NCBI GenBank assembly: GCA_050951545.1
Contig: JBMNJG010000004.1
Location: forward strand, 125,406-189,405
Source: Limnochordia bacterium
GTDB lineage: Bacteria; Bacillota; Limnochordia; DTU080
DNA length: 64,000 nt
Direction of reading: 5' to 3'
This document shows positions 1-46,181 of the stretch, piece after piece. Made by a program: the position numbers and the translations under genes. Below the pieces are notes generated by a model that ran no database searches, was not told the origin of the DNA, and was given only the letters and a program-made list of their open reading frames with translations. Positions within the stretch are counted from its first letter, which is position 1; every line of letters begins with the position of its first letter.

Positions 1-581
1 TGCTGCCAGAGCTCCGTCATAAAGGGGATCATTGTCCAATTGACCGTGGCGATGAGTCTGGTTCGCGAGAACAGTTCGATCAACTGAGGCAGAGGGATGG
101 CCGCCAGAAGGTTCTCCCAGTTGATATCCTTAATAGTCTCGAGCTTTCCTAACATGACCTTACCATCGCTGAACTCCAGGGCGTCGGTGTGTCCAGGATC
201 GGCGATAGAGATGACCCGGGCCTTTAGAGCCAACTCCCTAAAGACTGGATGCAAGGGTTGGCCAACGGCACCAATGTACGTAATATCCAGGCCCAGTGCG
301 GCCAGGGCGTTGGCCATAATGGGGCCGTTGCCTCCCAGTTTGACTGCTTTGGGGACGAGCTCGATGTTAGTGGAAAGCCCTGCAGCTTTTGTGATCCTTT
401 CGCCAAGCTCTGCGATGGTGCCAATCTTGGTGTAGGTGTCGGGTGAAGTGCGCTTGTCGACTGCTTCAATGATCTCATCAACGAACCCGTCAAACCCAAT
501 CACAGCTTGGGTCCCAGCTATCTGCGCGCTGCTTAGAGCATCTTTGGCGCGCTGTATCGCGTTCGATATTTCTACAGTCAT
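1..581 (-). CDS. ADP-dependent sugar kinase family protein (ADP-PFK/GK-like), partial; 5' end in window, 3' end beyond position 1
   Basis: Minus-strand translation from ATG at 581 reads MTVEISNAIQRAKDAL...KLGGNGPIMANALAALG. The GGNxxIMAN motif matches the second homolog at 34636. RBS AAGGAGGG lies upstream (revcomp of 586-596). Confidence 0.5.
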   Translation of the reverse strand, partial: MTVEISNAIQRAKDALSSAQIAGTQAVIGFDGFVDEIIEAVDKRTSPDTYTKIGTIAELGERITKAAGLSTNIELVPKAVKLGGNGPIMANALAALGLDITYIGAVGQPLHPVFRELALKARVISIADPGHTDALEFSDGKVMLGKLETIKDINWENLLAAIPLPQLIELFSRTRLIATVNWTMIPFMTELWQ

Positions 582-799
582 GGCAGTCCCTCCTTGAATG
601 GTTTCCCTAGCAGATGGAGTTCGTCTGCCATGCATCTATAACCTCCCTGTGTGCATACCGAAGAGCATGAAGTGTGGGCCAACGGCAAACACTTCGGATG
701 CACAGACAGGCGTATGCTCTTTGACACTGCTGGAGCGGTGTGGTAACCTACAGTGAAAATGACACGGCATCCTTTTACAGGCAGGGGGATATTGTATCG

Positions 800-2584
800 A
801 TGACGTCCAACACGAAGCTCCTTCAATGGGTCAAGAAGATGGCAGAACTCTGCCAGCCAGACGCCGTTTACTGGTGCAATGGATCACAGCAGGAGTATGA
901 CGACCTCTGCGATCTCATGGTCGCTCAGGGTACGTTTGTGAGGCTCAATGAACAGAAACGTCCCGGTAGCTTCCTGTGCCGTTCTCATCCGGATGATGTG
1001 GCGCGCGTAGAAGACAGAACGTTCATCTGTACCCGCCGTCGTGAAGATGCTGGTCCAACGAATAACTGGGTAGACCCTGTGGAGATGAAGACGACCCTGA
1101 AGGGGCTGTTTAGAGGCTCCATGCGAGGGCGGACCATGTATGTGATTCCGTTTAGCATGGGGCCCTTGGGTTCTGACATTTCGCACATTGGGGTAGAGCT
1201 GACGGATTCCCCGTATGTGGTGGCCAACATGCGCATCATGACGCGTATGGGGCAGGCTGTCCTTGACGTATTGGGCCCAGATGGCGATTTCGTGCCCTGC
1301 CTGCATTCTGTAGGTGCGCCGTTGCAGCCGGGTGAGAAGGACGTCCCCTGGCCGTGCAATCCGGAGCACAAGTATATTGTCCATTTTCCCGAGGAGAAGA
1401 GCATTTGGTCCTATGGCAGTGGTTATGGGGGCAATGCTCTCTTGGGTAAGAAGTGTTTTGCGCTGCGCATAGCATCTTATATGGCGCGGGAACAGGGCTG
1501 GCTGGCTGAGCACATGCTTATTGTGGGTTTTGAGTCGCCCGAGGGCGAAAAGACTTATGTGGCCGCTGCCTTTCCCAGCGCGTGTGGCAAGACCAATCTG
1601 GCCATGCTCATCCCGCCTGCGCATCTCGAGGGCTGGAAGGTCTGGACGGTCGGCGACGACATCGCGTGGATCAAACCGGGCCAGGATGGTCGCTTATATG
1701 CCATCAATCCCGAGGCAGGTTTCTTTGGTGTGGCACCAGGGACATCCATGTCGTCTAACAGGAACGCCATGCTGTCAATCCGCGCGAACTCCATTTTCAC
1801 CAACGTAGCGCTCACTCCTGATGGGGATGTCTGGTGGGAGGGTATGAGCGAGACTCCGCCAGCGTCATGTATCGACTGGCTGGGACAGGAATGGACCCCG
1901 GACAGCGGTCGGCCAGCGGCCCATCCTAACGCTCGTTTTACCGCTCCGATCGCACAGTGCCCGGTTGTGGATCCAGCTTGGGATGACCCCCAGGGCGTGC
2001 CCATTAGTGCTTTCGTGTTCGGTGGTCGCCGTGCCAACAATGTACCCTTGGTCTTTGAGGCCTATAACTGGGGACACGGAGTCTACTTGGGGGCCACCAT
2101 GGGCTCTGAGACAACCGCAGCCGCTGCAGGTGCCGTGGGTCGGGTGCGAAGAGATCCTTTTGCCATGCTGCCGTTTGCTGGCTACCACATGGGAGATTAC
2201 TTTGCGCATTGGATCAGCATGCGCAAACGGGTGGCACACCCTCCGCGTTTTTTCCACGTCAACTGGTTCCGTAAGAATGAAGAGGGTAACATCGTGTGGC
2301 CTGGATTCGGCGAGAACATGCGCGTAATGAAGTGGATTGTCGACCGTTGCCGAGGGCGGGTCGGGGCTGTCGAAACACCGTTAGGATGGGCGCCTGAGCC
2401 CGGCGACTTTGACCTAGGTGATCTGCCGGACTTCACCGCCGAGGACCTGGCCTGGGTGCAATCTATTGATCGAGAAGACTGGAAGAGAGAAGCGCATGAA
2501 CAAGACGAGTTGTTCATCCAGCTTCATGATCGGCTACCCAAGGATCTGCTCTGTGAACGGGAGCTTCTAATATCCCGCCTCTAG
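800..2584 (+). CDS. pckG: Phosphoenolpyruvate carboxykinase (GTP)
   Basis: Carries the [13 protein letters not shown] kinase-1a motif and [21 protein letters not shown], hallmarks of GTP-PEPCK. Length is about 595 aa. The start was set at ATG 800 (MTSNTKLL) rather than the track's upstream start. Confidence 0.88.
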
Positions 2585-17623: not shown

Positions 17624-18901
17624 ATGACGCGTCCGATTCGCTGGTGTTTGGCACTGTACTTGGTGCTCGCTTTGGTTTGGATACCAGGGGCCTTGGCGAA
17701 GGAACAGGTGGTCTTGAAGTGGACCACATGCTGTGGGCAACTGGATCGTCACGAGCTGTTTCAGTCGTGGGCGCGCCGCTATGAATCTCGTAATCCGGGA
17801 GTTAAGGTGGAGTGGGAGTACCCTGCTGGGAGCTATGGGAACGTGTTGCTGACCCGGATCGTTGGCGGCGCGGGACCTGACGTCATGTGGATCGGGGGCG
17901 CCTACTCACAGTTAGCTGACCTATTCGCCTCTGTGGAAGACATGCGAACGCGCGCTGGGGGGCCGCTGCGTGAGGTCATGCCCCAGGTATTCCCTCTTTT
18001 CACTTGGGGAGGGAAGCTGGGTGCGGCACCTTACGGGGCGAACACGGTGCCGTTCTTTGTCAACCAACGCCTTTTCGCTGAAGCAGGTCTGAGAATACCT
18101 CCACCCAACTGGACCTGGGATGATTTCCTCGTCTTGGTCAAGCGTCTTACTGTGGATCTCGATGGCGATGGCCAGCCCGATCGATGGGGTTTTGACATCC
18201 GCTCCGGAGGATACCAGTTGACCGCGCTCTCCTGGGGAGGAGCACCCTTCTCGCCTGACGGGCGCAAGGTGGCCTTCAATAACCCCATCACGGTTGGGGC
18301 TACACAAACTCTCGCAGATCTAGCAAACAACAGACACGGCCCCTATCAGTTGCCAGCAGGCCGAGGTGACTTCGCGGCAGTGGCGAGGTCTGGCGTGGTG
18401 GCTGTCGTAGCGGGCGGTGTCTGGGGGGTTCCTGCTCTGCGTCAGTTGCCCGAGGATGAATGGGAGGGCATCGTCTTTCCTGCCTATGAATATCAGGGTG
18501 AGCGCTATCACGGCTCCTATCTGTCAGGTGAGGCGTGGGCGATCTCTAACACAACACCATACCCAGAAGAAGCACGGCGGTTCGTAGAGTTCCTGCTGGA
18601 GAAGGAGCAGATGCGTGAGTTCGCCCGTCTGGGCGGCATCATTCCGACCCAGCAGTCGGTGGCCCGGGAGTTCTTCCACCCATCGACCTCGAAGCCACAA
18701 AACATGGCGGCATTCTTGGATTGCCTCGAGGTGGGCAAGCCTCTATACAATATCCACCCCGCTGGAAATGACATCATCTCCCGGTCTGGTCCGGTCTGGT
18801 CAGAGCTGTGGGCAGGCAGAATGCCCGCCTCTGCGGCACTAGAACAGATGGAGGTGATCGGAAACGCCGTCTTGGCCGACTTTTGGGCAAAGAAGCAGTA
18901 A
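17624..18901 (+). CDS. ABC transporter substrate-binding protein (family 1), array copy 2
   Basis: Translation identical to copy 3. GGGGGG RBS. Secretory signal ALA|KEQ without a lipobox Cys. Confidence 0.75.
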   Translation: MTRPIRWCLALYLVLALVWIPGALAKEQVVLKWTTCCGQLDRHELFQSWARRYESRNPGVKVEWEYPAGSYGNVLLTRIVGGAGPDVMWIGGAYSQLADLFASVEDMRTRAGGPLREVMPQVFPLFTWGGKLGAAPYGANTVPFFVNQRLFAEAGLRIPPPNWTWDDFLVLVKRLTVDLDGDGQPDRWGFDIRSGGYQLTALSWGGAPFSPDGRKVAFNNPITVGATQTLADLANNRHGPYQLPAGRGDFAAVARSGVVAVVAGGVWGVPALRQLPEDEWEGIVFPAYEYQGERYHGSYLSGEAWAISNTTPYPEEARRFVEFLLEKEQMREFARLGGIIPTQQSVAREFFHPSTSKPQNMAAFLDCLEVGKPLYNIHPAGNDIISRSGPVWSELWAGRMPASAALEQMEVIGNAVLADFWAKKQ

Positions 18902-18945
18902 GGTATTCTCTAGGCGGTCCGTCTCATTCTATAATGACAAGTATG

Positions 18946-18975
18946 GTTGACGCCTGCTGATTAGCGGGCGTCAAC
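18946..18975 (+). terminator. Same hairpin, copy after SBP 2
   Basis: Identical sequence, part of the 1480-bp repeat. Confidence 0.5.
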
Positions 18976-19103
18976 ATTATCTCTTTGCATAGTTGCTAGA
19001 CAATGGGGGTCGTAGGTAGAAGGAGATCAATAGAGTCGAAGGGAAACAGGGAGGTGAAATTGTCAGCTATCAAAGCTATCAGATCGAGGGGGGTTATCAC
19101 AGA

Positions 19104-20381
19104 ATGACGCGTCCGATTCGCTGGTGTTTGGCACTGTACTTGGTGCTCGCTTTGGTTTGGATACCAGGGGCCTTGGCGAAGGAACAGGTGGTCTTGAAGT
19201 GGACCACATGCTGTGGGCAACTGGATCGTCACGAGCTGTTTCAGTCGTGGGCGCGCCGCTATGAATCTCGTAATCCGGGAGTTAAGGTGGAGTGGGAGTA
19301 CCCTGCTGGGAGCTATGGGAACGTGTTGCTGACCCGGATCGTTGGCGGCGCGGGACCTGACGTCATGTGGATCGGGGGCGCCTACTCACAGTTAGCTGAC
19401 CTATTCGCCTCTGTGGAAGACATGCGAACGCGCGCTGGGGGGCCGCTGCGTGAGGTCATGCCCCAGGTATTCCCTCTTTTCACTTGGGGAGGGAAGCTGG
19501 GTGCGGCACCTTACGGGGCGAACACGGTGCCGTTCTTTGTCAACCAACGCCTTTTCGCTGAAGCAGGTCTGAGAATACCTCCACCCAACTGGACCTGGGA
19601 TGATTTCCTCGTCTTGGTCAAGCGTCTTACTGTGGATCTCGATGGCGATGGCCAGCCCGATCGATGGGGTTTTGACATCCGCTCCGGAGGATACCAGTTG
19701 ACCGCGCTCTCCTGGGGAGGAGCACCCTTCTCGCCTGACGGGCGCAAGGTGGCCTTCAATAACCCCATCACGGTTGGGGCTACACAAACTCTCGCAGATC
19801 TAGCAAACAACAGACACGGCCCCTATCAGTTGCCAGCAGGCCGAGGTGACTTCGCGGCAGTGGCGAGGTCTGGCGTGGTGGCTGTCGTAGCGGGCGGTGT
19901 CTGGGGGGTTCCTGCTCTGCGTCAGTTGCCCGAGGATGAATGGGAGGGCATCGTCTTTCCTGCCTATGAATATCAGGGTGAGCGCTATCACGGCTCCTAT
20001 CTGTCAGGTGAGGCGTGGGCGATCTCTAACACAACACCATACCCAGAAGAAGCACGGCGGTTCGTAGAGTTCCTGCTGGAGAAGGAGCAGATGCGTGAGT
20101 TCGCCCGTCTGGGCGGCATCATTCCGACCCAGCAGTCGGTGGCCCGGGAGTTCTTCCACCCATCGACCTCGAAGCCACAAAACATGGCGGCATTCTTGGA
20201 TTGCCTCGAGGTGGGCAAGCCTCTATACAATATCCACCCCGCTGGAAATGACATCATCTCCCGGTCTGGTCCGGTCTGGTCAGAGCTGTGGGCAGGCAGA
20301 ATGCCCGCCTCTGCGGCACTAGAACAGATGGAGGTGATCGGAAACGCCGTCTTGGCCGACTTTTGGGCAAAGAAGCAGTAA
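19104..20381 (+). CDS. ABC transporter substrate-binding protein (family 1), array copy 3
   Basis: Identical to copy 2 at the sampled nucleotides and in the full translation. Confidence 0.75.
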   Translation: MTRPIRWCLALYLVLALVWIPGALAKEQVVLKWTTCCGQLDRHELFQSWARRYESRNPGVKVEWEYPAGSYGNVLLTRIVGGAGPDVMWIGGAYSQLADLFASVEDMRTRAGGPLREVMPQVFPLFTWGGKLGAAPYGANTVPFFVNQRLFAEAGLRIPPPNWTWDDFLVLVKRLTVDLDGDGQPDRWGFDIRSGGYQLTALSWGGAPFSPDGRKVAFNNPITVGATQTLADLANNRHGPYQLPAGRGDFAAVARSGVVAVVAGGVWGVPALRQLPEDEWEGIVFPAYEYQGERYHGSYLSGEAWAISNTTPYPEEARRFVEFLLEKEQMREFARLGGIIPTQQSVAREFFHPSTSKPQNMAAFLDCLEVGKPLYNIHPAGNDIISRSGPVWSELWAGRMPASAALEQMEVIGNAVLADFWAKKQ

Positions 20382-20425
20382 GGTATTCTCTAGGCGGTCC
20401 GTCTCATTCTATAATGACAAGTATG

Positions 20426-20455
20426 GTTGACGCCTGCTGATTAGCGGGCGTCAAC
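20426..20455 (+). terminator. Same hairpin, copy after SBP 3
   Basis: Identical sequence, part of the 1480-bp repeat. Confidence 0.5.
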
Positions 20456-20583
20456 ATTATCTCTTTGCATAGTTGCTAGACAATGGGGGTCGTAGGTAGA
20501 AGGAGATCAATAGAGTCGAAGGGAAACAGGGAGGTGAAATTGTCAGCTATCAAAGCTATCAGATCGAGGGGGGTTATCACAGA

Positions 20584-21861
20584 ATGACGCGTCCGATTCG
20601 CTGGTGTTTGGCACTGTACTTGGTGCTCGCTTTGGTTTGGATACCAGGGGCCTTGGCGAAGGAACAGGTGGTCTTGAAGTGGACCACATGCTGTGGGCAA
20701 CTGGATCGTCACGAGCTGTTTCAGTCGTGGGCGCGCCGCTATGAATCTCGTAATCCGGGAGTTAAGGTGGAGTGGGAGTACCCTGCTGGGAGCTATGGGA
20801 ACGTGTTGCTGACCCGGATCGTTGGCGGCGCGGGACCTGACGTCATGTGGATCGGGGGCGCCTACTCACAGTTAGCTGACCTATTCGCCTCTGTGGAAGA
20901 CATGCGAACGCGCGCTGGGGGGCCGCTGCGTGAGGTCATGCCCCAGGTATTCCCTCTTTTCACTTGGGGAGGGAAGCTGGGTGCGGCACCTTACGGGGCG
21001 AACACGGTGCCGTTCTTTGTCAACCAACGCCTTTTCGCTGAAGCAGGTCTGAGAATACCTCCACCCAACTGGACCTGGGATGATTTCCTCGTCTTGGTCA
21101 AGCGTCTTACTGTGGATCTCGATGGCGATGGCCAGCCCGATCGATGGGGTTTTGACATCCGCTCCGGAGGATACCAGTTGACCGCGCTCTCCTGGGGAGG
21201 AGCACCCTTCTCGCCTGACGGGCGCAAGGTGGCCTTCAATAACCCCATCACGGTTGGGGCTACACAAACTCTCGCAGATCTAGCAAACAACAGACACGGC
21301 CCCTATCAGTTGCCAGCAGGCCGAGGTGACTTCGCGGCAGTGGCGAGGTCTGGCGTGGTGGCTGTCGTAGCGGGCGGTGTCTGGGGGGTTCCTGCTCTGC
21401 GTCAGTTGCCCGAGGATGAATGGGAGGGCATCGTCTTTCCTGCCTATGAATATCAGGGTGAGCGCTATCACGGCTCCTATCTGTCAGGTGAGGCGTGGGC
21501 GATCTCTAACACAACACCATACCCAGAAGAAGCACGGCGGTTCGTAGAGTTCCTGCTGGAGAAGGAGCAGATGCGTGAGTTCGCCCGTCTGGGCGGCATC
21601 ATTCCGACCCAGCAGTCGGTGGCCCGGGAGTTCTTCCACCCATCGACCTCGAAGCCACAAAACATGGCGGCATTCTTGGATTGCCTCGAGGTGGGCAAGC
21701 CTCTATACAATATCCACCCCGCTGGAAATGACATCATCTCCCGGTCTGGTCCGGTCTGGTCAGAGCTGTGGGCAGGCAGAATGCCCGCCTCTGCGGCACT
21801 AGAACAGATGGAGGTGATCGGAAACGCCGTCTTGGCCGACTTTTGGGCGCAGAAAAAGTAG
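20584..21861 (+). CDS. ABC transporter substrate-binding protein (family 1), array copy 4
   Basis: Identical to copies 2 and 3 except the last 4 residues (WAQKK vs WAKKQ). Repeat identity ends at 21848. Confidence 0.75.
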   Translation: MTRPIRWCLALYLVLALVWIPGALAKEQVVLKWTTCCGQLDRHELFQSWARRYESRNPGVKVEWEYPAGSYGNVLLTRIVGGAGPDVMWIGGAYSQLADLFASVEDMRTRAGGPLREVMPQVFPLFTWGGKLGAAPYGANTVPFFVNQRLFAEAGLRIPPPNWTWDDFLVLVKRLTVDLDGDGQPDRWGFDIRSGGYQLTALSWGGAPFSPDGRKVAFNNPITVGATQTLADLANNRHGPYQLPAGRGDFAAVARSGVVAVVAGGVWGVPALRQLPEDEWEGIVFPAYEYQGERYHGSYLSGEAWAISNTTPYPEEARRFVEFLLEKEQMREFARLGGIIPTQQSVAREFFHPSTSKPQNMAAFLDCLEVGKPLYNIHPAGNDIISRSGPVWSELWAGRMPASAALEQMEVIGNAVLADFWAQKK

Positions 21862-30084: not shown

Positions 30085-33000
30085 CTAGCACTTCGTGTAG
30101 CCGCAAGCCTTGCAGACGAAGCAGCCCTCTTCGCGAGCAAGGGCGGCGATACCGCAGGTGGGGCACAGATCCATACCGGAGCCAAAATCAATCGTGACTT
30201 GGATGCCCTGACTGCGTTGACTGTCCTCTATATGCACCTTTAGTGTCTTGGCCAAGGCATCAGGCACCGACGAGATGCGATTGATACCAAAGCCAACTGA
30301 CGTAGAACCTCCGATGTCAGAGAGGTGTTTCACCAGCATCTGGACTTTCTCATCTGCGGTCTTCATCCCGGCGTGTTTCAGGAATAGGGTAGCCAGCCTT
30401 CCGAGTGCTTCAGACATCGCGGAGATGTCACTTCCTGCCTTGCCGATGTTGAGGAAGACTTCGATGGGATCGCCTTGATACTCGTTTACCGTAATGAACG
30501 CTTTGCCCAACGGCGTCAGCCACTCATATGTCGCACCAGACAATTTGTGAGGCCTACCGGGCCACCGACGCTCTCTTTCTGGCGCAGGTACATCGGCTGG
30601 AGGTGCTTGAGCAGGGGCCTCTTTGTGCGCTTCGTCGGGTGTTTCTTCCTTCTTGGTCAGCACCTGCTCATTGCGTGAACCGTCTCGATAGATGGTGACA
30701 CCTTTGCAGCCCAGTTCATAGGCGTACTCGTAGAGTTCCTTCGTTTGCTCGAGGCTATAGTGATTGGGCGCGTTGGCGGTCTTGCTGATGGAGGAGTCGG
30801 TCCACGCTTGTATGGCTGCCTGCACCTGAATATGCTCTTTCGGAGCCAGTTCCATGGCCGAGACAAAGTAGTCGGGTAGATTGTCGAGCTGGCTTTCGAG
30901 CTCGGGATGCTGCCTGAAATACTCAGCTACGATGCGTTCTTGCACCTCATTGACACCAAGGCGTCCTTTGCGCCAGTAGGTCCATGAGTAATAGGGTTCG
31001 ATGCCAGTACTAGTTCCAATCATCGTTCCTGTAGAGCCAGTTGGCGCCTGGGTGAGTACACACACATTGCGCATCCCTTTTTCCTCGATATGTGCTCGCA
31101 CGTGTTCCGGCAGCTTCTTAACGAACCCGCCTTGTAGGTACTTCTCTTTGTCAAATTTGGGAAAGGCGCCCTTTTCCGCCGACAGATTGGCACTTGCCGA
31201 ATACGCTTCCGTGGCTATGAACCGGTAAAGCTCGTCAATGAACTCGAGGCTTTCGGGCGAACCGTAGCGTATTCCCATACGGATGAGCATCTCGCCCAAG
31301 CCCATGGTACCCATGCCCACCCGGCGTTGCCCTTTCTGAACATCCTCGTTTTGGGGAAAGAAATACGGGGTGATGTCAATGATGTTGTCAAGGAAGCGCA
31401 CACCCGCATGGATGGCGCGACGCAATGACTCCCAATCTACACTAGCCTCGCCAATGGGACCTGCGGCGAAACGACTCAGGTTGATGTGTCCGAGATTGCA
31501 GACTCCCCAAGGGGGCAGGGGCTGTTCGGCACAGTTATGCACAATCAGTCCGTTGGCGCAGAAAGCGCTGGCCTGCTCTACCGTCAGATCATAGACCATC
31601 TCTTGGCCATCCGGCACAAGCGCCTTGAAAGTGGCCACAAAGCGCTCATCGCCAGTTTGGGGTGCCAATGCCTGGAGTTCGCTCTGTTTGTCCGAATCCA
31701 AGAGACCGATCTGTTCTTGAAGGCGCCTAAGGCTAGGGCCACTGATCTGTAACTGTGAGGAGGCACGAAGACGACCCAAGATACCGAAGTTGAGCAGCAA
31801 CAGCTGCACAGCTTGCAGAAACTGCTCCGAATCGCTCGCCAACGCCACTGCATTGCTCTCATTGTCGACAAACGCGTGGGCTGTGAACAGAGACTGTAGG
31901 AAGCCCATCTGCATCTCTCGGGTGCCCTGAAGTACGTGATAGGGTAGGTGGGAGCAGCTGGTGTCAGCGCCCAGGCTGCGGCCTAGCTCCAACGAACCGC
32001 TTTTACCGAAGGCTCCTCCCCGATTGTGTATGAGGATGCCGTCGCCGGGTGTCAGGTCTTGCGCTTGTACCCAGCCGCGATTGTCAGTGAGAAGACGATG
32101 GTCAGCAGTGAGGCGTAGTTCGAAACCTTCCTCGGTAGTGAGGCGGAACACGGGTTTGAACCCCGAAGCAAAAACCTCCGAAGCTGGTGTGAATGGTGGA
32201 GAGCCCAGGCGCGAATCCGTGGCGACGTTGAGAGCAGAATTGCGCAGATACAGATCATCGGTGCGCCAAAGCCCTTGATCTGTGTAAAGGATACTATCGC
32301 CAGTGACACATGGGTTGGTGCTGATCAGATCCTCGAAGTACCAGCTATTGGAGTACTCGTTCATACGCTCGAGAAAGACCACACCAGGTTCGGCGCTCAT
32401 CCACGCAGACTCCATGATGGTGTTCCATATTTCGCGAGCTTTCAGCGTACGATGTGTCTTGACTGGTTTGCCAAGCTTGCGCCATCGCTGCATGCTGCCG
32501 TCCCACAGTTCATCATACTCGGGGTCCTGCGTATCTGGGAACTCGAGGTTCCAGTTGGCGTCCTCTCTTACGGCTTCCATGAAGGCGTGGCTGATGGCAA
32601 CGGAGATATTGGCGTTATTGATGGCTTGCATGTCGCGCTTGGCCTTGATGAACTCCAAGAGATCAGGGTGCCAGTCTTCCAGAATAAGCATGAGGGCGCC
32701 TCTGCGGCTTCCGCCTTGCTCAACCAGGCCCGTAGCAAAGCTAAATAACGCCCCCCAGCTCACAGAGCCGGAGCTGCGTCCGTTGACCCCTGCAACATAA
32801 GACAGGCGCGGCCGCAGGGCAGAAAGGTTTATACCGACACCACCGCCTCGAGACATGATCTCCACCATGTTGCCCAGAGTATCGATGATCGCCTGTCGAG
32901 AGTCGATGCCACCATCACCGTCGGGGCGGATGGGGATGACGTAGCAGTTATAGGCTGTGAGATTCTGTCCCGTACCTAACATCGCGTTTATGCGCCCACC

Positions 33001-33432
33001 TGGGCTAAAACGAAAATCACCTAAGAGCCAGCGGAACTCCTTTCTCAGTTCAGCCTGCTTTGTTGGTTCCTCCACGGTCACCACGCTGCGCGCCATGCGA
33101 TCCCACATGTCTTCCGGGAGAAGCTCAAGCGGCTTATCTACTTTTTTGCGATCCTGAACGAAAAGCTCGCCCGAGCTTTTGAGCTCTATGGACAGCATGT
33201 CACCATCTATTGAGCGGACAACGCCCACGTCCTTTTGCGGAAACCGGGGGTCCTCCTTCACCAGTACGACGACGGTGTCGCCCGGTGCGATTCTCTTGTT
33301 AGGATCCTTCATGGCGTAGCGATCAAGGAAAATGAGTTCGGAGATGCCATCGAGAGTCACGCGCTCCTCCTCTGCGTCTGACGTGACAGATGGTGTGGGG
33401 TGAGGTTGGGAGTTGGGTAGAGATGATGTCAA
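30085..33432 (-). CDS. nrdJ: Adenosylcobalamin-dependent ribonucleoside-diphosphate reductase (class II, NrdJ) containing one intein
   Basis: The class II active-site motif TNP|C...AEQPLPPWGVCNLG is split by an insertion. C-terminal Zn-ribbon CPTCG...CKACG is present. Mature extein is about 856 aa. Confidence 0.85.
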   Translation of the reverse strand: MTSSLPNSQPHPTPSVTSDAEEERVTLDGISELIFLDRYAMKDPNKRIAPGDTVVVLVKEDPRFPQKDVGVVRSIDGDMLSIELKSSGELFVQDRKKVDKPLELLPEDMWDRMARSVVTVEEPTKQAELRKEFRWLLGDFRFSPGGRINAMLGTGQNLTAYNCYVIPIRPDGDGGIDSRQAIIDTLGNMVEIMSRGGGVGINLSALRPRLSYVAGVNGRSSGSVSWGALFSFATGLVEQGGSRRGALMLILEDWHPDLLEFIKAKRDMQAINNANISVAISHAFMEAVREDANWNLEFPDTQDPEYDELWDGSMQRWRKLGKPVKTHRTLKAREIWNTIMESAWMSAEPGVVFLERMNEYSNSWYFEDLISTNPCVTGDSILYTDQGLWRTDDLYLRNSALNVATDSRLGSPPFTPASEVFASGFKPVFRLTTEEGFELRLTADHRLLTDNRGWVQAQDLTPGDGILIHNRGGAFGKSGSLELGRSLGADTSCSHLPYHVLQGTREMQMGFLQSLFTAHAFVDNESNAVALASDSEQFLQAVQLLLLNFGILGRLRASSQLQISGPSLRRLQEQIGLLDSDKQSELQALAPQTGDERFVATFKALVPDGQEMVYDLTVEQASAFCANGLIVHNCAEQPLPPWGVCNLGHINLSRFAAGPIGEASVDWESLRRAIHAGVRFLDNIIDITPYFFPQNEDVQKGQRRVGMGTMGLGEMLIRMGIRYGSPESLEFIDELYRFIATEAYSASANLSAEKGAFPKFDKEKYLQGGFVKKLPEHVRAHIEEKGMRNVCVLTQAPTGSTGTMIGTSTGIEPYYSWTYWRKGRLGVNEVQERIVAEYFRQHPELESQLDNLPDYFVSAMELAPKEHIQVQAAIQAWTDSSISKTANAPNHYSLEQTKELYEYAYELGCKGVTIYRDGSRNEQVLTKKEETPDEAHKEAPAQAPPADVPAPERERRWPGRPHKLSGATYEWLTPLGKAFITVNEYQGDPIEVFLNIGKAGSDISAMSEALGRLATLFLKHAGMKTADEKVQMLVKHLSDIGGSTSVGFGINRISSVPDALAKTLKVHIEDSQRSQGIQVTIDFGSGMDLCPTCGIAALAREEGCFVCKACGYTKC
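31534..32310 (-). other. Intein (259 aa) inserted in the NrdJ active-site loop
   Basis: Begins with Cys (CVTGDSILYT) immediately after the extein TNP. Ends with ...GLIVHN followed by the +1 extein Cys (CAEQPL). The internal FLQSLFTAHAFVD may be a degenerate LAGLIDADG remnant. Confidence 0.8.
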
Positions 33433-33479
33433 GGAATGAGTCCTCCTTCTGAAAAAGACTTCGACACTTTGCCCCAGAC

Positions 33480-33965
33480 CTATCGTGAGTCTTCGTCGGG
33501 CTGGCTATGATGGAGCAGCTTCTGGAGTTCGTTCATGAAGCGCTGGATGTCGCCAAACTGGCGATACACTGATGCAAAGCGTACGTAGGCGACCTCATCG
33601 ATTTCGCGCAGCCCTTGCATTACCAGTTCGCCTACACTTCGTGAAGAGATCTCTTGCTCCATGCGATTGCGCAAGGTTGTCTCTACCTGATCGACAAGGT
33701 TCTCTAGGGTGGCTAGGGCAACTGGTCGCTTCTCACACGCGGTGAGGAGGCCGCGCAGTATCTTCTGGCGATCAAACTCCTCGCGCCTACCGTCCTTCTT
33801 GATCACCATGAGCGGTACAGACTCCACACGTTCGTAGGTAGTAAAGCGACCGTCACAACACGCACAGGCGCGACGGCGCCGAATGGCACGACCTTCGGAC
33901 GTTGGACGGGAGTCAACGACGCGGCTGTCCACTTCTCCACAGTAAGGGCATTTCACTATGTACAC
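33480..33965 (-). CDS. nrdR: Transcriptional repressor NrdR
   Basis: Zn-ribbon CPYCG...CxxC followed by an ATP-cone. GTG start at 33965. Sits directly upstream of nrdJ on the same strand. Confidence 0.85.
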
Positions 33966-34635
33966 CTGCTAGCACAACATATGGTACCCAGATCAGTATA
34001 GACCCCTACATCTTGACCGTCAAAAGAGATTAGATCACGTTTGGATGTGTCTGACTCCCATTTTCGCGTGCGCAGGAGCTTTTGCTCGCTATCTTGGACA
34101 GACTACAGTAGTGGTCCAGAGGAGTACGCATGCCCGCACAGCATCACATGATCCTCTGGGGAGGTGAGTGTTCATGGGAAACATAGGCACATACGATGCT
34201 TTGTTACGTATAGGCACCGGCGCTTTGGCCTTGGCGTGGGCGAGTAGCCGATCCCGCTGGAGCGGGATTACGTCGCTTGTCGCAACTTGTGGCGCTGTGC
34301 TTGTCGGGGAAGGCATCACTCGTTTCAGCCCTCTCTATGCTGTCATGTCTCTGACAACTGTCGAGGATGAGGGAGAAAAGGTGATCTTGCGTGTGGGCCC
34401 GGTGACCTATCGCCGCCGCCCCCATAGTTCGAGAGCTGGATGCACGCTATGGGGCGTGACTCAAGACACGACCCTGCTGACGAATCACCTGAGCTCAGTT
34501 CGCTGTCGGCGAACAAGACGGACTGGCATTCACCGCGACGATGGGAGCCTACTTGACCTAGTGGCAGGGAAAGCGCGCCAGATGTGGAAGAACCAGAGCG
34601 TGCGCAAAGCAGCTCAGGGAGGGTCAGGTAATAGT

Positions 34636-36084
34636 ATGGCAAATATCGATCAGCTTCGTAATACATGGAATCAGCTTTACCAGGAGAATTTGTCCGAAGG
34701 GTTCGCCGCTGTGCGCGACTTGCCAGGTGTAGTGGTGGGTATTCACTCAGTCATCGACGGACTCAAGCGCCTCGATGTCGCTCAGCTCGAACAGGTTTTG
34801 GCGGACGATCCAGACTTGGCGGATGCTGCTCTGGAGGCGAGCGAAAAGGAGCTTGTGCCAGGCGAGATCAACACCCCGCGCGATTTTATCATTGGGTTGT
34901 TCACATCCTTTAGTCGGGGCAAGGCCCTGCAGCTTATGATTCGGCAAGAGTCAGCCTTTAATTGGGCACTGGAGAAACTCGGCTATGACTTTCTCCGTAT
35001 GGGTGGTACTTCGGGTAACATGGCCAACTCGTTGTCACCGCTGGGTTTTCCCATGGTGGTCTACGCCAATCCGCTCACACGTGAGTTGGCCGAGCTTTTC
35101 GTCGACAGGCCGAACTTGAAGGTGTTGGCCGCTGATGGCACCCCGAAGCCGCCAAAAGAAGCTGCTCAAGGCGAGGGTATCAAGGCGCTGCACCTGATCG
35201 TGGAGTATTCCACTGGCGACACTGTCACTGTGAAGGGCAAGAAGATCACCACGCCACGGGCCAATCGGTTCATTGCCGCCTGGAACCCTGTCAACAATAA
35301 GTTGCAGATTGATCCCACATGGAAGACGAATTTCCTAGCTATGGCAGATCAGGTCAGTCACTTTGTGGTCTCCGGTTTCCATATTCTCTCGGAGCGCTAT
35401 CCGGATGGTACCACGTATGCGGACTATCTGGCTCCTGTAGGCGAGTACCTGGCCGAGGTGCGCGCTCGCCACCCGCATCTGCGCCTGCACTATGAGTTTG
35501 CCAGCATCGCGAGCTCACATATCCGTCGCGGCATCCTCAAAGACATCTTGCCAAGAGTGCACAGTCTTGGACTCAATGAGGTAGAGCTGGCAGCTGTGCT
35601 AGACGACATCGGTGCAGTCGAAGAGGCTGCGGCCATGCGCAGGGAGGAAGGCATGGCGGCTATTCTCAAGGGTATGGATCGGTTGATGCGCCATACAGGT
35701 CTCGATCGCATTCAGCTGCATGATTTGGGCTACTACCTCACCTTGGTTCGTCCTGGCTATGCACCGCAGGAGAAGACGCGTACGGGCCTGATCTTGGCGG
35801 CGACTCTGGCAGCGAGCCGCACAGCAACGGGCAAGGTAGGTACTGAGGCTGAGATACGACAAGGCCTAGAGTTCCCGTTCATGGATGCCGCTCTTAAGAA
35901 GGCTGCGGAGATCAGCGAGTTTATCGGTGACGAGCAGTTGACGAAGACGGGTCTGGGCACGTGGAAGGACTGGCAGGTTGCCTATTTGCCGACCCGCGTG
36001 GTACCAAAGCCAGTGCTGACTGTAGGCCTGGGCGACCTAATCTCCGCATCGGCGTTCACAGTGGGCAGTCCTACCCACGCCTAG
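34636..36084 (+). CDS. ADP-dependent sugar kinase family protein (ADP-PFK/ADP-GK-like)
   Basis: GGTSGNMANSLSPLG and the C-terminal TVGLGDLISASAF motif, both characteristic of ADP-dependent PFK/GK. GGGAGGG RBS lies before ATG 34636. Continuous in frame with an upstream DUF2892-like segment (see findings). Confidence 0.65.
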   Translation: MANIDQLRNTWNQLYQENLSEGFAAVRDLPGVVVGIHSVIDGLKRLDVAQLEQVLADDPDLADAALEASEKELVPGEINTPRDFIIGLFTSFSRGKALQLMIRQESAFNWALEKLGYDFLRMGGTSGNMANSLSPLGFPMVVYANPLTRELAELFVDRPNLKVLAADGTPKPPKEAAQGEGIKALHLIVEYSTGDTVTVKGKKITTPRANRFIAAWNPVNNKLQIDPTWKTNFLAMADQVSHFVVSGFHILSERYPDGTTYADYLAPVGEYLAEVRARHPHLRLHYEFASIASSHIRRGILKDILPRVHSLGLNEVELAAVLDDIGAVEEAAAMRREEGMAAILKGMDRLMRHTGLDRIQLHDLGYYLTLVRPGYAPQEKTRTGLILAATLAASRTATGKVGTEAEIRQGLEFPFMDAALKKAAEISEFIGDEQLTKTGLGTWKDWQVAYLPTRVVPKPVLTVGLGDLISASAFTVGSPTHA

Positions 36085-36102
36085 TTGCCTCCAAAAGAAG
36101 AA

Positions 36103-36140
36103 ACCGGTCGGTCATGTGCGGCCGACCGGTCCCTGAGCTT
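36103..36140. terminator. Bidirectional terminator hairpin between convergent ADP-kinase and cysK (accggtcgg...ccgaccggt, then ctttt)
   Basis: 9-bp perfect stem directly beyond both stop codons. Confidence 0.45.
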
Positions 36141-36141
36141 T

Positions 36142-37071
36142 TCATACTTCCTGCCACAACTCGGTGGAGAGGTAGCGTTCCCCAGTATCCGGCAAAATGA
36201 CAACAACAAGTTGGCCTTTGTTCTCTGGCCTGGTGGCGACAACAGAAGCTGCGTAGGCCGCGGCACCTGACGAGATGCCGACCAACACGCCCTCCTGGCG
36301 GGCTAGTTGACGGGCGGTTTCCATGGCCTCCTCGTCCCGGACTTGGAGGACCTCATCGATGAGTCGAGGGTCGTAGACATCCGGTACGAAACCAGCTCCG
36401 ATCCCCTGGATCTTATGTGGCCCGGGAGCGCCCCCGGAGAGCACCGGAGACCCGGCTGGCTCTACAGCGATTGTGCGAACCGCTGGCTTGTGCTTTTTCA
36501 GGCCTGCGGCGACGCCAGTGGCCGTGCCTCCTGTGCCTACAGTGCTCACGACAATGTCTACCGCCCCGTCTGTGTCACGCCAGATCTCCTCAGCGGTAAT
36601 ATCCCTATGAATCTGCGGATTTGCTGGATTGGAGAACTGCATCGGTACGAACGTGTCGGGCAGCTGACGTGCCAGCCCCTGCGCCTTGGCTATGGCTCCA
36701 GCCATGCCCTCAGCTCCTGGCGTGAGAATCAGCTCGGCTCCATATGCTTTGAGTAGCGCGCGACGCTCGCTACTCATTGTGTCGGGCATCGTCAGAATAA
36801 GCCTGTATCCTTTTGCCGCACAGACCAAAGCCAAGCCAATGCCTGTATTGCCGCTAGTAGGCTCAATCACCACTGTCTGTGAGCTCAAGAGGCCCTGCGC
36901 TTCGGCCGCGGCGATCATGTTGAAGCCGACGCGGTCTTTCACGCTTCCTCCGGGGTTAAAGCACTCCAATTTGGCGTACACATCGGCACCAGTGCGCTCG
37001 CTGATGTGGTTGAGCCTCAGCAGAGGCGTGTCGCCGATGAGATCAATGACGGAACTGGCCACTCTTGCCAT
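36142..37071 (-). CDS. cysK: Cysteine synthase A (O-acetylserine sulfhydrylase)
   Basis: PLP-lysine region PGGSVKDR and GNTGIGLA. 309 aa. Confidence 0.88.
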
Positions 37072-37162
37072 GCTGCATCTCCTTCTGGGAACAGGGCTCC
37101 GAGTGCATTCATGCTAGCATGAGTTGTCTGTGGGTGCAAGGACAGGACAGGTCATGAAAACA

Positions 37163-37191
37163 TTGACAGGAGGCCGGAGGCCAGGTATACT
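37163..37191 (+). promoter_or_regulatory. Sigma-A-type promoter TTGACA-17-TATACT driving the SAM riboswitch and metY-metX
   Basis: Hexamers TTGACA (37163-37168) and TATACT (37186-37191) with a 17-nt spacer, about 35 nt upstream of the aptamer. Confidence 0.5.
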
Positions 37192-37229
37192 CCAGATAAT
37201 CTGCACCACCAAAAGTGCATACTGGCAAG

Positions 37230-37402
37230 AACTCTTATCTAGAGTGGCAGAGGGACTGGCCCGATGAAGCCCGGCAACCGGCAACCCGTGTGGTTGTGTC
37301 ATGGTGCTAATTCCTGCAGGATCACAGATCCTGGAAGATGAGAGGGAGTCTGCAGATGATTTTTCGTCAATATGCCTCTCCCTTTCTCAGGAGAGGTTTT
37401 TT
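37230..37402 (+). ncRNA. SAM-I (S-box) riboswitch with terminator expression platform
   Basis: CTCTTATCtAGAGtGGcaGAGGGACTGGCCCGATGAAGCCCGGCAACC...GGTGCTAATTCCTGCAG...GATGAGAGG matches the S-box consensus. The terminator CCTCTCC-loop-GGAGAGG+TTTTTT lies at 37374-37402. Confidence 0.85.
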
Positions 37403-43952: not shown

Positions 43953-46181
43953 ATGTCAAAGCGTTTCGCTTCCCAGCCATCCACATTCTCCACTCGCCAA
44001 GCTCAAAGACGGACAAGCACCCTTCGGCGGTTGGTCTTCCTGTTGTACCGGCTTTTTGCGGCATCTGATGCGTGGGCCATCAACGTACTCAGTTTCTTGG
44101 CAGGGCGAGCTGGTCTCATGGGCGAGATCCATCCCTTTGGAATCGCGTTGTTCTTCATCACATTGCGGACGGGCCATCGAGTGCGGGCCGTGTCCACGGC
44201 ACTGAGCGTTCTGGCAGGTTTGGCTACTGTGGCTGGCTTGGGTCGAGTAATGAGCGTTACTGCGGCGCTAGTAGCAGCCTATCTTTTCCAGAAAACACAG
44301 AAGAGCTCATCTGATCCGGTGGCCTGGCCTGGGGCCCTAGAGCTAACGGGCCTGCTGACGATCACTCGTCTGGCCGAGGGCTATGTGCTGGGTATTACGC
44401 CTCGGAGCGTGGCGGTGATCCTCTTAGAGGCTATGATGGTGTTGCTGGCCACGTTGCTCTTTGCGCCCTTGGCCCGGTTGGTGCGGGAAGAATGGCCTTA
44501 CAGGCTGCATAGGGAGCAGCTCGTATCTGTCGGATTGGCAGCTGTTGTGGTAGGCATGGGGCTGGGGGGGCTCAGCGTCGGCCCCGTACAGCTGTGCGAA
44601 GTGTGGAATCGTTGGGTAACACTTGTGGCGGCCCTGTTGGGGCACGGGGCCATTGGTGCTGCTCAGGGAGTAGCCCTTGGCATCATGGCGGAGCTGTCAT
44701 CTCTGCGTCTGTTAGGCGGCGGGGTAGGGGTATATGGTATCTCGGGACTGCTGGGAGGACTGTTCAGCAATGGTGGCAAGGTCACCGTAATAGCAGGTTT
44801 TCTTGTAGGGAATCTGATCGCCTCGGTACAGGCTGTGTCGGGCGAGAGCATCGTCATGGGCTTTGCGCACTCGTTGGCTGCAATTGCCCTCTTTGTGGCC
44901 ACTCCCGAACGGTTCATATGGCGATTAGCCAGGGCTATCCCAGGTACCGAAGCTGAGACTGCGGTAGCAGCCGCACGAGAGATCCACCTGCGAGAGACTG
45001 TGACCGAAAGACTCGAGCAGCTGTCCGGAATATTCGGTGAGTTAGCTGAGGTATTCGCCGAGGTGCACCATGGCAAGCCCTCGGTTAGCCAGCACGCGGG
45101 TGATCTATCGATGCGTCTCGAGCAAGCGCATCAGATTGTGCCGAGCCAGCTTCGCGGATTGCAGCAGATCGCCGCGCATATCGCGGAACAGGTACGGGTG
45201 GACACTGGGCGTTCGGAGGAACTCGAAGCGCGTGTGTCAGAAGAACTGATGCGACGAAATATCCCGTATGCTGAGCTACGGGTCCTGCACGCTGCGGGAG
45301 AGCATCCGGAGGTGAGCCTTGTCTACAACAGAGCTTGCGATGGGGAGGGCAGTTGCTGCCGTCAGGTGGCTCAAGCAGTGACCTCAGCCTTGATTGAGAC
45401 CTATACACCCTGGCAGATCGAATGTAGGGGACGTCAAGGAGGTTGCCGCATTCGGCTTCTTCCCGAACGACCCTATGAGCTTATCGTGCGAGGGGCCACT
45501 CTGGCGAAGGAGCTCGGAGGCGTATCAGGAGACACTTATGCCAAGGCCGAACTGGCGGATGGGAAGGTAGCCTTGTTACTCAGTGACGGCATGGGGGTGG
45601 GTCCACGGGCAGCACTGGAAAGCAGGGCCACGGTCACGATGCTGCAGAGACTGATCAGTGTGGGCTTTGACCGAGAGTTTGCTGTACAGACTGTAAACTC
45701 AGTGATGCTGTTGCGCTCATTTGAGGAGACCTACGCAACATTAGACCTGGCCGTAATCGATCTGTTCTCCGGTGAGTTGGAGTTTCTCAAGATCGCCTCC
45801 GCTCCCAGCTTTATCCGTCGCAAGCGGAATGTGGAGGTGATCCGCTCCAATTCGCTCCCAGTAGGCATTCTCAGTGATATCAAGGTTCCGACGCAAAGAA
45901 GCCAGCTACATGCGGAAGACATACTTGTGATGGTTACTGATGGTGTTCTCGATGCATTGCCGGAAAGATTGGACCCGGAGGAGTGGTTAGCGCGCTACAT
46001 ACGTCGAGACACGGGTGACGACGCCATGGGCTTGGCAGAAGGCCTCCTGACCCTAAGTGGCGAGAAGGCAGGCGACATACGAGATGACATGACTGTCGTT
46101 GTGGCAAAGCTATTGCGGCGCACGGTGGATCTCGAGACGCTGCTGCGGGGTGACCTTCCGGTTTTCCATCGGCACCGATAG
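43953..46181 (+). CDS. spoIIE: Stage II sporulation protein E (SpoIIE) PP2C-type phosphatase with polytopic N-terminal membrane domain
   Basis: N-terminal multi-TM region resembles B. subtilis SpoIIE (GRAGLMGEIHPFGIALFF). C-terminal PP2C (LLSDGMGVGPRAA...VTDGVLDA). Start uncertain: 43938 GTG or 43953 ATG. Confidence 0.75.
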   Translation: MSKRFASQPSTFSTRQAQRRTSTLRRLVFLLYRLFAASDAWAINVLSFLAGRAGLMGEIHPFGIALFFITLRTGHRVRAVSTALSVLAGLATVAGLGRVMSVTAALVAAYLFQKTQKSSSDPVAWPGALELTGLLTITRLAEGYVLGITPRSVAVILLEAMMVLLATLLFAPLARLVREEWPYRLHREQLVSVGLAAVVVGMGLGGLSVGPVQLCEVWNRWVTLVAALLGHGAIGAAQGVALGIMAELSSLRLLGGGVGVYGISGLLGGLFSNGGKVTVIAGFLVGNLIASVQAVSGESIVMGFAHSLAAIALFVATPERFIWRLARAIPGTEAETAVAAAREIHLRETVTERLEQLSGIFGELAEVFAEVHHGKPSVSQHAGDLSMRLEQAHQIVPSQLRGLQQIAAHIAEQVRVDTGRSEELEARVSEELMRRNIPYAELRVLHAAGEHPEVSLVYNRACDGEGSCCRQVAQAVTSALIETYTPWQIECRGRQGGCRIRLLPERPYELIVRGATLAKELGGVSGDTYAKAELADGKVALLLSDGMGVGPRAALESRATVTMLQRLISVGFDREFAVQTVNSVMLLRSFEETYATLDLAVIDLFSGELEFLKIASAPSFIRRKRNVEVIRSNSLPVGILSDIKVPTQRSQLHAEDILVMVTDGVLDALPERLDPEEWLARYIRRDTGDDAMGLAEGLLTLSGEKAGDIRDDMTVVVAKLLRRTVDLETLLRGDLPVFHRHR

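Follow-up and report, generated by a model that had tools for sequence, protein, structure and literature searches.

Does a Limnochordia bacterium synthesize a sugar kinase of an essentially archaeal, ADP-dependent type that is tethered to its membrane? The question is raised by an uninterrupted reading frame in the 64,000-nucleotide stretch of DNA analysed here (the window), which starts at GTG 34168 or ATG 34174, ends at 36084 and encodes 638 or 636 residues. The first-pass annotation had described this frame as a DUF2892-like membrane module fused without a stop to an ADP-dependent kinase and had left the choice between a tethered enzyme and a pair of genes with an intervening stop that had been lost or wrongly sequenced. 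Direct reading of the window confirms that the frame is open throughout. Nevertheless, the apparent fusion very probably represents two adjacent, separate genes that were joined by a frameshift in a single assembly. The features of the locus are listed in Table 1.

Table 1. Features of the locus and of the window start (window positions)
Feature	Position	Strand	Basis
SD-like GGGGAGGTGA before the DUF2892 gene start	34158..34167	+	direct sequence reading
DUF2892/YgaP-like membrane protein gene, unaffected codons 1-98	34174..34467	+	PF11127, Kyte-Doolittle, orthologue alignment
Frameshift site, polymorphic micro-indel, window allele CAAGACACGACCCTG	34466..34470	+	strain comparison
DUF2892 gene, last ~28 codons, out of frame in the window	34471..34553	+	alignment and frame translation
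DUF2892 native TGA stop, out of frame in the window	34554..34556	+	L004/L005 and L012/L013 gene ends; frame translation
Intergenic spacer / kinase 5' leader, 79 nt	34557..34635	+	locus comparison
Kinase Shine-Dalgarno GGGAGGG	34617..34623	+	sequence; conserved in L012, L006, L001
ADP_PFK_GK-family sugar kinase, 482 aa, own start MANIDQ...	34636..36084	+	PF04587, 245.7 bits
NrdR, divergent neighbour; synteny only, outside the kinase system	33480..33965	-	conserved synteny
CysK cysteine synthase A, convergent neighbour; synteny only	36142..37071	-	TIGR01139, 448 bits, cut-off 351
SAM riboswitch	37232-37344		Rfam
PF25270 (prokaryotic ketohexokinase) family kinase, N-terminal 193 codons	581->1	-	Pfam HMM

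Both modules of the reading frame were identified as claimed. Residues 3-63 match PF11127 (YgaP-like_TM) with 41.7 bits, above the gathering score of 25.3, and residues 185-629 match PF04587 (ADP_PFK_GK) with 244 bits against a cut-off of 27; PfkB/ribokinase Pfam models scored no higher. The predicted ribosome-binding sites in front of both starts are present, as are the GGTSGNMAN and VGLGDLISASAF motifs of the kinase. The segment between the modules had been taken for an 80-residue low-complexity linker but is composed of three unlike pieces. Residues 64-98 (...VILRVGPVTYRR...CTLWGVTQD) form a C-terminal tail that is conserved among the DUF2892 orthologues, which align over the entire stretch of codons 1-98. 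Residues 99-126 are the continuation of this tail in the wrong frame, and residues 127-154 are translated intergenic spacer; the Arg-rich character of the joining peptide is that of out-of-frame sequence. The native frame of the tail reads PADESPELSSLSANKTDWHSPRRWEPT followed by the stop, the window frame TLLTNHLSSVRCRRTRRTGIHRDDGSLL. Codon usage/GC3 of the 28-codon tail scored -0.11 and -0.07 bits/codon in the two frames. A run of 55 stop-free codons after the shift (34471-34635) has a chance of approximately 13%, as computed from the GC content of 57%, so that the open frame itself is unremarkable.

In all of the approximately 250 homologues the kinase domain stands alone. Neither the 120 listed clusters at 90% identity nor the 150 listed representatives at 50% identity include the fusion architecture; all contain PF04587 only, at lengths of about 430-566 residues, and a hydrophobic N-terminal extension was found in none of the listed kinase homologues. 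A query with the DUF2892 part returned only proteins of 119-127 residues in 2 clusters, in a word index that is less sensitive for a query of 98 residues. In every related genome examined, a DUF2892 gene of 112-127 codons with its own stop precedes the kinase gene. The order divergent nrdR, DUF2892 gene with stop, kinase gene is kept in L006 (90% identity), L001 (87%), L002 (71%) and L003 (67%). Loci almost identical to the window, L004/L005 (99.4%) and L012/L013 (99.7-99.8%), likewise encode a separate DUF2892 protein of 126 or 127 residues, the gene of which stops 25 nt upstream of ATG 34582. L004 and L005 are identical to each other and may be two assemblies of one sample. The two-gene cluster members P0126-P0132 occur on at least 17 contigs (NCBI, JGI, Logan). 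The fusion is on record only once, as P0123 (MGI6609545.1), a protein that agrees exactly with the window reading frame and therefore stems from the window's own genome. Exact look-ups of the 636-, 638- and 482-residue products and of P0123 returned no entry. The first-pass annotation had named a restored stop behind the DUF2892 segment as the observation that would speak against a fusion, and the sister strains show just such a sequence difference. These strains and the relatives do not support the tethered kinase; they favour the reading of two genes with a lost stop, and a micro-indel of 1-2 nt explains the read-through.

A selected fusion, in which a membrane-anchored ADP-dependent kinase is coupled, for example, to sugar uptake, would agree with the continuous reading frame, with the DUF2892-kinase adjacency kept in the close clade and with a YgaP-type hairpin, which, judged from the architecture of YgaP, would leave the kinase in the cytoplasm. 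Arguing against this possibility are the lack of any other fused protein among the homologue clusters, the stop in strains at 99.4-99.8% identity and a joining peptide made of out-of-frame tail and translated spacer. In addition, the kinase has no DUF2892 neighbour at the loci with 53%, 45%, 42% and 37% identity. The reading frame thus does not qualify as a natural DUF2892-ADP_PFK_GK fusion, and a selected fusion, largely refuted by these data, is highly improbable. A general functional linkage of the two proteins was likewise rejected, since the adjacency is lost at 53% identity and below. Adjacency is also all that speaks for programmed ribosomal frameshifting or stop read-through coupling both genes. 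The two frames differ in the in-frame strains, with a stop between them, a slippery site is not conserved, the spacer is unconserved beyond the close clade, and an Rfam search (E<=1) over 33400-37400 revealed the SAM riboswitch as the only RNA element and none in the linker. Such coupling can be practically dismissed.

How the frameshift arose is revealed in part by the site itself. The in-frame alleles at this position are CAAGACAACCCTG (126-residue protein) and CAAGATGACGACCCTG (127 residues); the window allele has 2 nt more than one of them and 1 nt less than the other and is a reproducible column-wise mosaic of both. A metagenome collection scanned for the two alleles gave 0 hits and thus does not contain this species. 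When CG is removed from the window sequence, the resulting tail is 1 residue off that of L004 and resembles those of L006 and L002. Since both in-frame alleles co-occur in the species, an error of consensus building or polishing in a mixed-strain, probably long-read, metagenome assembly is the most likely origin. The use of long reads is suggested by three tandem repeats of 1.48 kb each, 99.5-100% identical, that are resolved in the window. A close alternative, somewhat less probable than an error of the consensus, is a genuine strain-private frameshift that deprives the DUF2892 protein of its native last 28 residues and creates a nascent fusion, either neutral or slightly harmful. Support for this alternative comes from the natural hypervariability of the site, for which three in-frame alleles exist in the population, from its location where the DUF2892 protein is least conserved and from the intact SD and start of the kinase. 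Moreover, the site lies outside any homopolymer and is the single indel in 11.9 kb relative to L013, the closest relative, which indicates that the assembly is not grossly error-prone. Against a genuine mutation stand the occurrence of the allele in one record, as opposed to in-frame alleles on at least 17 contigs, its exact mosaic structure and the presence of other 1-nt indels in the assembly: relative to L012 the window has three further ones, of which two are of the homopolymer type and one shifts the start of SpoIIE. Were the allele real, ribosomes initiating at 34174 would synthesize some tethered fusion beside free kinase made from the internal SD and ATG, and a tethered, active kinase would be topologically possible; that the allele is both real and gives rise to a functional membrane-tethered kinase is very unlikely. 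Whichever of the two origins applies, assembly-consensus error or strain-private mutation, the frameshift is not an evolved fusion.

Based on these observations, the following organization is proposed. The first gene would encode a DUF2892/YgaP-like two-helix membrane protein of about 126 residues with a lineage-specific soluble tail and would end at the native stop. The second would encode a cytoplasmic ADP_PFK_GK-family sugar kinase of 482 residues, with an SD and a start ATG of its own. Only in the window assembly would the micro-indel shift the DUF2892 frame past the native stop, so that it crosses 28 codons read out of frame, then the 79-nt spacer, and enters the frame of the kinase. The kinase would be unaffected, whether the shift is an error or a real mutation.

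The DUF2892 protein matches PF11127 with 41.7-44.4 bits (cut-off 25.3) and contains a two-helix hydrophobic hairpin at residues ~9-50, with hydrophobic Kyte-Doolittle windows that begin at residues 9-10 and 29-35. It has no rhodanese domain, in contrast to E. coli YgaP. Within the spacer, members of the close clade share a conserved block, TGTGGAAGAACCAGAGCGTGCGCAAAGCAGCTCAGGGAGG; the locus comparison revealed no conservation of the spacer outside this clade. No terminator-like site was found in the linker, and its one promoter-like site is on the opposite strand. Some gene callers use ATG 34582, located in frame upstream of the kinase start, and predict 500 residues; the start of the 482-residue protein is the one common to relatives at 67-90% identity.

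The 482-residue kinase covers positions 2-429 of the 430 of PF04587 (244-246 bits), and its best PDB matches, 6c8z and 1gc5, are homologous over the full length (E 2e-68 and 2e-59). It contains G464-L-G-D467, H285-x-E287, N314-x-x-E317 and R211, and 114-117 of 117 homologues have the same catalytic and ADP-site residues. Codon differences between strains amount to 8 synonymous:1 nonsynonymous and 6:1. By analogy with the roles assigned to catalytic and pocket residues in ADP-dependent kinases (PMC7948494), R211, H285-x-E287, N314-x-x-E317 and G464-x-G-D467 would serve to pass the beta-phosphate of ADP to a non-phosphorylated sugar. ADP dependence and a sugar substrate are predicted from family membership. 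The sugar pocket is remodelled such that it fits neither known motif, the positions of which are given in AncMsPFK numbering. Of the GK motif N32/N34/D36, E90, Q116 and H181, it retains D36 and H181 alone, the other residues being H37, V39, Q99 and T125; in place of K179, N181 and R212, which bind phosphate in PFK and bifunctional enzymes, the kinase has A184, H186 and N217. It also scores below every NCBIfam equivalog cut-off, with 230 against 554 bits (NF010641) and 208 against 387 bits (NF010642) for GK and 243 against 408 bits (TIGR02045) for PFK. Glucose would be the default guess for the sugar, with a pocket that differs from that of characterised glucokinases.

The occurrence of such a kinase in a Firmicute had been considered notable, which is not supported. 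Bacterial PF04587 proteins form more than 117 clusters at 90% identity, many of which are named 'ADP-dependent glucokinase/phosphofructokinase' by NCBI or JGI, and the family has been reported in bacteria (PMC7948494). At 50% identity, the bacterial clade falls into about 14 clusters from Limnochordia and other Bacillota, Omnitrophota, Latescibacterota, Poribacteria and Athalassotoga, and its pocket is invariantly H32, V/T34, Q90, T116, A179, H181, N212 and H244. In the limited library of literature searched, no characterised bacterial enzyme was found. Judged by sequence, these proteins represent a coherent uncharacterised subfamily of a mostly archaeal family, with an intact core and a remodelled pocket. 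Among ADP-dependent kinases they may, tentatively, constitute a third specificity class, acting on a sugar that is neither glucose nor fructose-6-phosphate. An ADP-dependent serine kinase, prompted by the neighbouring CysK, was considered and rejected, since SerK (TK0378) belongs to the ParB-like proteins, outside PF04587 (PMC5120207), and is absent among the PDB matches. CysK itself gives no such hint: its gene is convergent with that of the kinase, and the protein scores above the cut-off of the ordinary cysK equivalog.

A second ADP_PFK_GK paralog had been proposed at the window start. The gene in question (581->1) matches PF25270 at positions 5-193 of 365 with 123.9 bits (cut-off 35), and scores 21.3 bits against ADP_PFK_GK, below the cut-off of 27. 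Since it continues past the window edge, its N-terminal half alone lies in the window, and it resembles the 34636-36084 kinase only in a 39-residue stretch around the GG motif (E 0.006). Its profile match places it in the predicted ATP-dependent prokaryotic ketohexokinase (Khk) family; it is no PF04587 paralog.

The locus is a cautionary case: the tempting membrane-tethered archaeal-type kinase of a Firmicute is the product of a frameshift that one assembly shows at a polymorphic micro-indel and that has already been carried into NCBI as a 636-residue 'ADP-dependent glucokinase/phosphofructokinase'. PF04587 proteins occur widely among bacteria and have been annotated before; the new lead would be a pocket of neither GK nor PFK type in proteins that keep all catalytic and ADP motifs, and the question for enzymology is whether bacterial ADP-dependent phosphorylation targets a new sugar.

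Compared with known systems, the fused frame resembles the chimeric reading frames that frameshifts create in metagenome assemblies, in that a single fused record is opposed by two-gene sister assemblies, the joining peptide is Arg-rich and out of frame, and the indel lies at a polymorphic site. It differs from them by the location of the indel outside a homopolymer and by the very good agreement of the window with independent assemblies. The DUF2892 protein shares the ~60-residue two-helix hairpin with stand-alone PF11127 proteins but carries in addition a lineage-specific soluble tail of ~60 residues (…RxGPxxYRR…LWGV… acidic … W-x-x before the stop) outside the Pfam model. The window-start gene resembles haloarchaeal ketohexokinases (H. 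volcanii and H. hispanica; PMC11519228) over its N-terminal 193 residues (E 1e-35), whereas it is bacterial and its ketohexokinase activity is predicted from the family; ATP-dependent conversion of fructose to fructose-1-phosphate is known only for haloarchaeal PF25270 members (PMC11519228). With the archaeal ADP-GK/PFK enzymes (AncMsPFK, 6C8Z/6XIO; Thermococcus litoralis GK, 1GC5/4B8S) the kinase shares the two-domain ribokinase-like family, D36, R206, HXE, (N/D)XXE, the catalytic Asp of GXGD and the adenine/ribose pocket residues H360, L362, V459 and V460. It is a bacterial protein, with 29-33% identity to the nearest canonical representatives, and deviates from the archaeal pocket by N32->H, N34->V/T, E90->Q, Q116->T, K179->A, R212->N and Q244->H, with H181 alone being GK-like.

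A continuous ORF that joins a DUF2892 segment to an ADP_PFK_GK kinase had been reported in the first-pass annotation, and this raw observation is correct: the reading frame is uninterrupted (see table), Pfam places PF11127 (YgaP-like_TM) on ORF residues 3-63 (41.7 bits, cut-off 25.3) and PF04587 (ADP_PFK_GK) on residues 185-629 (244 bits, cut-off 27), and the window sequence also contains the two SD-like sites and the two motifs that had been quoted. The fusion is a frameshift of a single assembly across two genes of known families and not a biological architecture. A search with the whole ORF yielded 137 clusters, and the matches listed (120) were proteins of 371-566 aa with PF04587 alone. 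HMMER, run exhaustively over 1.84 billion representatives, gave 628 family members; none of the best 150 carried an N-terminal module comparable to that of the window ORF, nor was a hydrophobic N-terminal extension found in the longer kinase homologues. The DUF2892 part alone matched only proteins of 119-127 aa. The related genomes L006, L001, L002 and L003, whose kinases are 90%, 87%, 71% and 67% identical to that of the window, have the same gene order (NrdR on the opposite strand, DUF2892, kinase), and their DUF2892 gene has its own stop 86-260 nt upstream of the kinase start. Throughout this clade the DUF2892 gene is divergent from nrdR. On at least 17 contigs (NCBI, JGI, Logan), the 90% cluster of the small DUF2892 protein is represented by seven sequence variants. 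The sole fused record, MGI6609545.1 of NCBI ('MAG: ADP-dependent glucokinase/phosphofructokinase [Limnochordia bacterium]', on a 350-kb contig), is identical to the window ORF residue for residue and hence stems from the window's own genome. Since no homologue shares the fusion and relatives and sister strains have the DUF2892 stop, a membrane-tethered kinase, as had been proposed, must be abandoned as an architecture.

Positions of the features in the window
Feature	Position	Strand	Details
PF25270-family gene	1-581	-	continues past window edge
GTP-dependent PEP carboxykinase	740-2584	+	adjoins and diverges from PF25270-family gene
Three tandem SBP_bac_1-like solute-binding protein genes	17624-21861	+	425 aa each; 1480-nt repeat unit
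Ribonucleotide reductase (Ribonuc_red_lgC + TSCPD)	30085-33432	-	1115 aa with intein
Joined ORF	GTG 34168 / ATG 34174 to stop 36082-36084	+	638/636 aa
DUF2892 soluble tail motif	34363-34467	+	also in L001, L002, L003, L006; outside Pfam model
CG at frameshift site	34469-34470
DUF2892 native stop (TGA)	34554-34556	+	25 nt before ATG 34582
Kinase leader block	34573-34623	+	~45 nt, TGTGGAAGAACCAGAGCGTGCGCAAAGCAGCTCAGGGAGG
Kinase SD	34617-34623	+
Kinase gene	34636-36084	+	482 aa
SAM riboswitch RF00162	37232-37344	+	95.8 bits, E 5e-23
O-acetylhomoserine sulfhydrylase-like gene (Cys_Met_Meta_PP)	to 38720	+	longest-ORF start 37338
1-nt indels relative to L012	43789; 43814; 43972		43814 GGG/GG; 43972 CCC/CC

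The separating stop is present in four near-identical strain assemblies, L004 (JGI 3300065814) and L005 (Logan SRR31128965), which are mutually identical and 99.4% identical to the window over 7.5 kb, L012 (JGI 3300053716, a 304-kb contig; 99.73% over 21.5 kb) and L013 (Logan SRR31065934; 99.82% over 11.9 kb). All contain a separate DUF2892 gene that ends at the TGA and encodes 126 aa in L004 and L005 and 127 aa in L012 and L013. The L004 allele is CAAGACAACCCTG (…QDNPADE), the L012 allele CAAGATGACGACCCTG (…QDDDPADE) and the L013 allele CAAGATGACGACTCTG; the frameshifted window allele, CAAGACACGACCCTG, is 2 nt longer than that of L004 and 1 nt shorter than that of L012. Over 11.9 kb the alignment of the window with L013 contains a single indel, which is the frameshift site. 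The tail read in the window frame, TLLTNHLSSVRCRRTRRTGIHRDDGSLL, bypasses the native stop, crosses a 79-nt spacer and enters the kinase frame; according to our calculation, the chance of 55 stop-free codons after such a shift is ~13% at this base composition. Removal of the CG gives back PADESPELSSLSANKTDWHSPRRWEPT followed by the stop, one residue off L004. The sister assemblies and this deletion bear out the other reading of the first-pass annotation, two genes whose separating stop was lost or mis-sequenced.

As revealed by alignment, DUF2892 orthologues of related genomes are 112-126 aa long and not ~63 aa; they have in common a tail of V-x-[LF]-R-[VLI]-G-P-x-x-Y-R-R … C-T-L-W-G-V-T-Q, after which come an acidic stretch and a C-terminal W-x-x. 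Genuine conserved DUF2892 coding sequence therefore makes up the presumed 80-aa linker for its first ~35 residues, and the remainder is out-of-frame tail plus translated spacer. A codon-usage test on the tail, with 28 codons only, did not separate the two frames.

With regard to the origin of the frameshift, we lean somewhat towards a consensus artefact. The window allele is reproduced exactly when the L004-type allele supplies two adjacent columns (T→C, G→gap) and the L012-type allele all others, which speaks for an artefact because such a mosaic is what column-wise polishing would yield from a mixed-strain pile-up. That the window resolves three 1.48-kb tandem SBP_bac_1-like gene copies, 99.5-100% identical also at the protein level, suggests a long-read assembly; repeats of this kind are normally resolved by long reads only. 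The repeat itself could be a feature of the assembly or, alternatively, the product of recent tandem amplification. Three further 1-nt indels distinguish the window from the 99.7%-identical L012. The indel at 43972, located 44 nt inside the SpoIIE CDS called in L012, shifts the start in the window to GTG 43938 and is a second frame-affecting indel private to the window assembly. Both the mosaic and these indels argue against a genuine strain-private mutation, which we consider possible but the less probable origin, although the site is not a homopolymer, is naturally indel-polymorphic within a poorly constrained tail, and the assembly is clean apart from the listed indels. Were the allele real, the strain would produce some fused protein, with the kinase, judged by YgaP hairpin topology, on the cytoplasmic side. 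Whether artefact or mutation, the frameshift leaves the kinase gene unaffected: its SD and ATG are kept in L012, L006 and L001, the start of the 482-aa protein is that common to the relatives, and synonymous to nonsynonymous codon differences between strains amount to 8:1 and 6:1.

The leader block of the kinase is near-invariant in the window, L012, L006 and L001, the flanking proteins being 87-90% identical. Its hairpin, GAGCGUGC...GCAGCUC, abuts the SD (fold z-score -2.5), and an Rfam search of the block gave no match. The block may serve in the control of translation or transcription. Downstream, the SAM riboswitch lies immediately 5' of the sulfhydrylase-like gene, the true start of which is probably the downstream one of L004/L012 (429 aa) since the longest-ORF start overlaps the riboswitch. 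The intein of the ribonucleotide reductase bears a LAGLIDADG homing-endonuclease domain; the L001 orthologue (873 aa) is without intein.

The gene at the window start had been taken for a second ADP-kinase paralog. It fits best into PF25270, prokaryotic ketohexokinase, with 123.9 bits; against ADP_PFK_GK it scores 21.3 bits, which is under threshold, and BLASTP of its product against the kinase aligned one 39-residue GG-motif stretch only (E 0.006), so that there is no pair of paralogs. PF25270 consists of ATP-dependent haloarchaeal-type ketohexokinases that form a separate cluster in the ribokinase/PfkB superfamily (PMC11519228). The family is characterised so far in haloarchaea only, and the member described here resides in a Limnochordia genome.

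This genome, a Limnochordia (Bacillota) MAG, agrees with the earlier guess of a Firmicute. The view that ADP-dependent kinases are essentially archaeal holds insofar as most are archaeal; their occurrence in bacteria is not remarkable, as it is acknowledged in PMC7948494 and PMC12525153, and many bacterial members are already named in databases. The literature searched contained no biochemically characterised bacterial member. Genomic surroundings differ among distant members. A Limnochordales MAG has a ROK regulator, glucodextranase and GH66 there, Athalassotoga has a GH2-GH4-transporter operon, and another genome has lpxK/waaA beside the kinase gene; other loci of distant members had no informative neighbours. 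DUF2892 was absent from all distant loci examined, and its adjacency to the kinase is thus local synteny of one lineage and not a functional module.

The nearest solved structures are the ancestral Methanosarcinales ADP-PFK (6C8Z/6XIO, E 2e-68) and the T. litoralis ADP-GK (1GC5, E 2e-59); the kinase reaches no cut-off of the NCBIfam equivalog models. Residues defined experimentally in PMC7948494 were mapped onto the window kinase and 117 homologues. In AncMsPFK numbering, with the window residue in brackets, the catalytic residues D36 (D41), R206 (R211), HXE (H285/E287), NXXE (N314/E317) and GXGD (G464/D467) are kept, which makes the kinase a bona fide family member, and the adenine/ribose pocket (H360, L362, V459, V460) is kept as well. 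In the sugar pocket N32 is replaced by H37, N34 by V39 (V or T in the clade), E90 by Q99, Q116 by T125, K179 by A184, R212 by N217, Q244 by H249, and N181 by H186, the last as in glucokinases. These substitutions are almost invariant in the kinase clade, and among the best 150 of 628 50%-identity representatives the signature is limited to the ~14 highest-ranking clusters (>=37% identity), beyond which it changes abruptly to the GK type (N-N-D-E-Q-L-H-R-D) or the PFK type (N-N-D-x-Q-K-N-R-R). From these residues we infer that the kinase would be ADP-dependent and act on some non-phosphorylated sugar, and the clade-specific sugar pocket of these bacterial PF04587 kinases is the one lead worth recording. 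Unlike the PFKs, the window kinase is devoid of the phosphate-binding residues and, unlike the GKs, it lacks several of the glucose-contacting residues.
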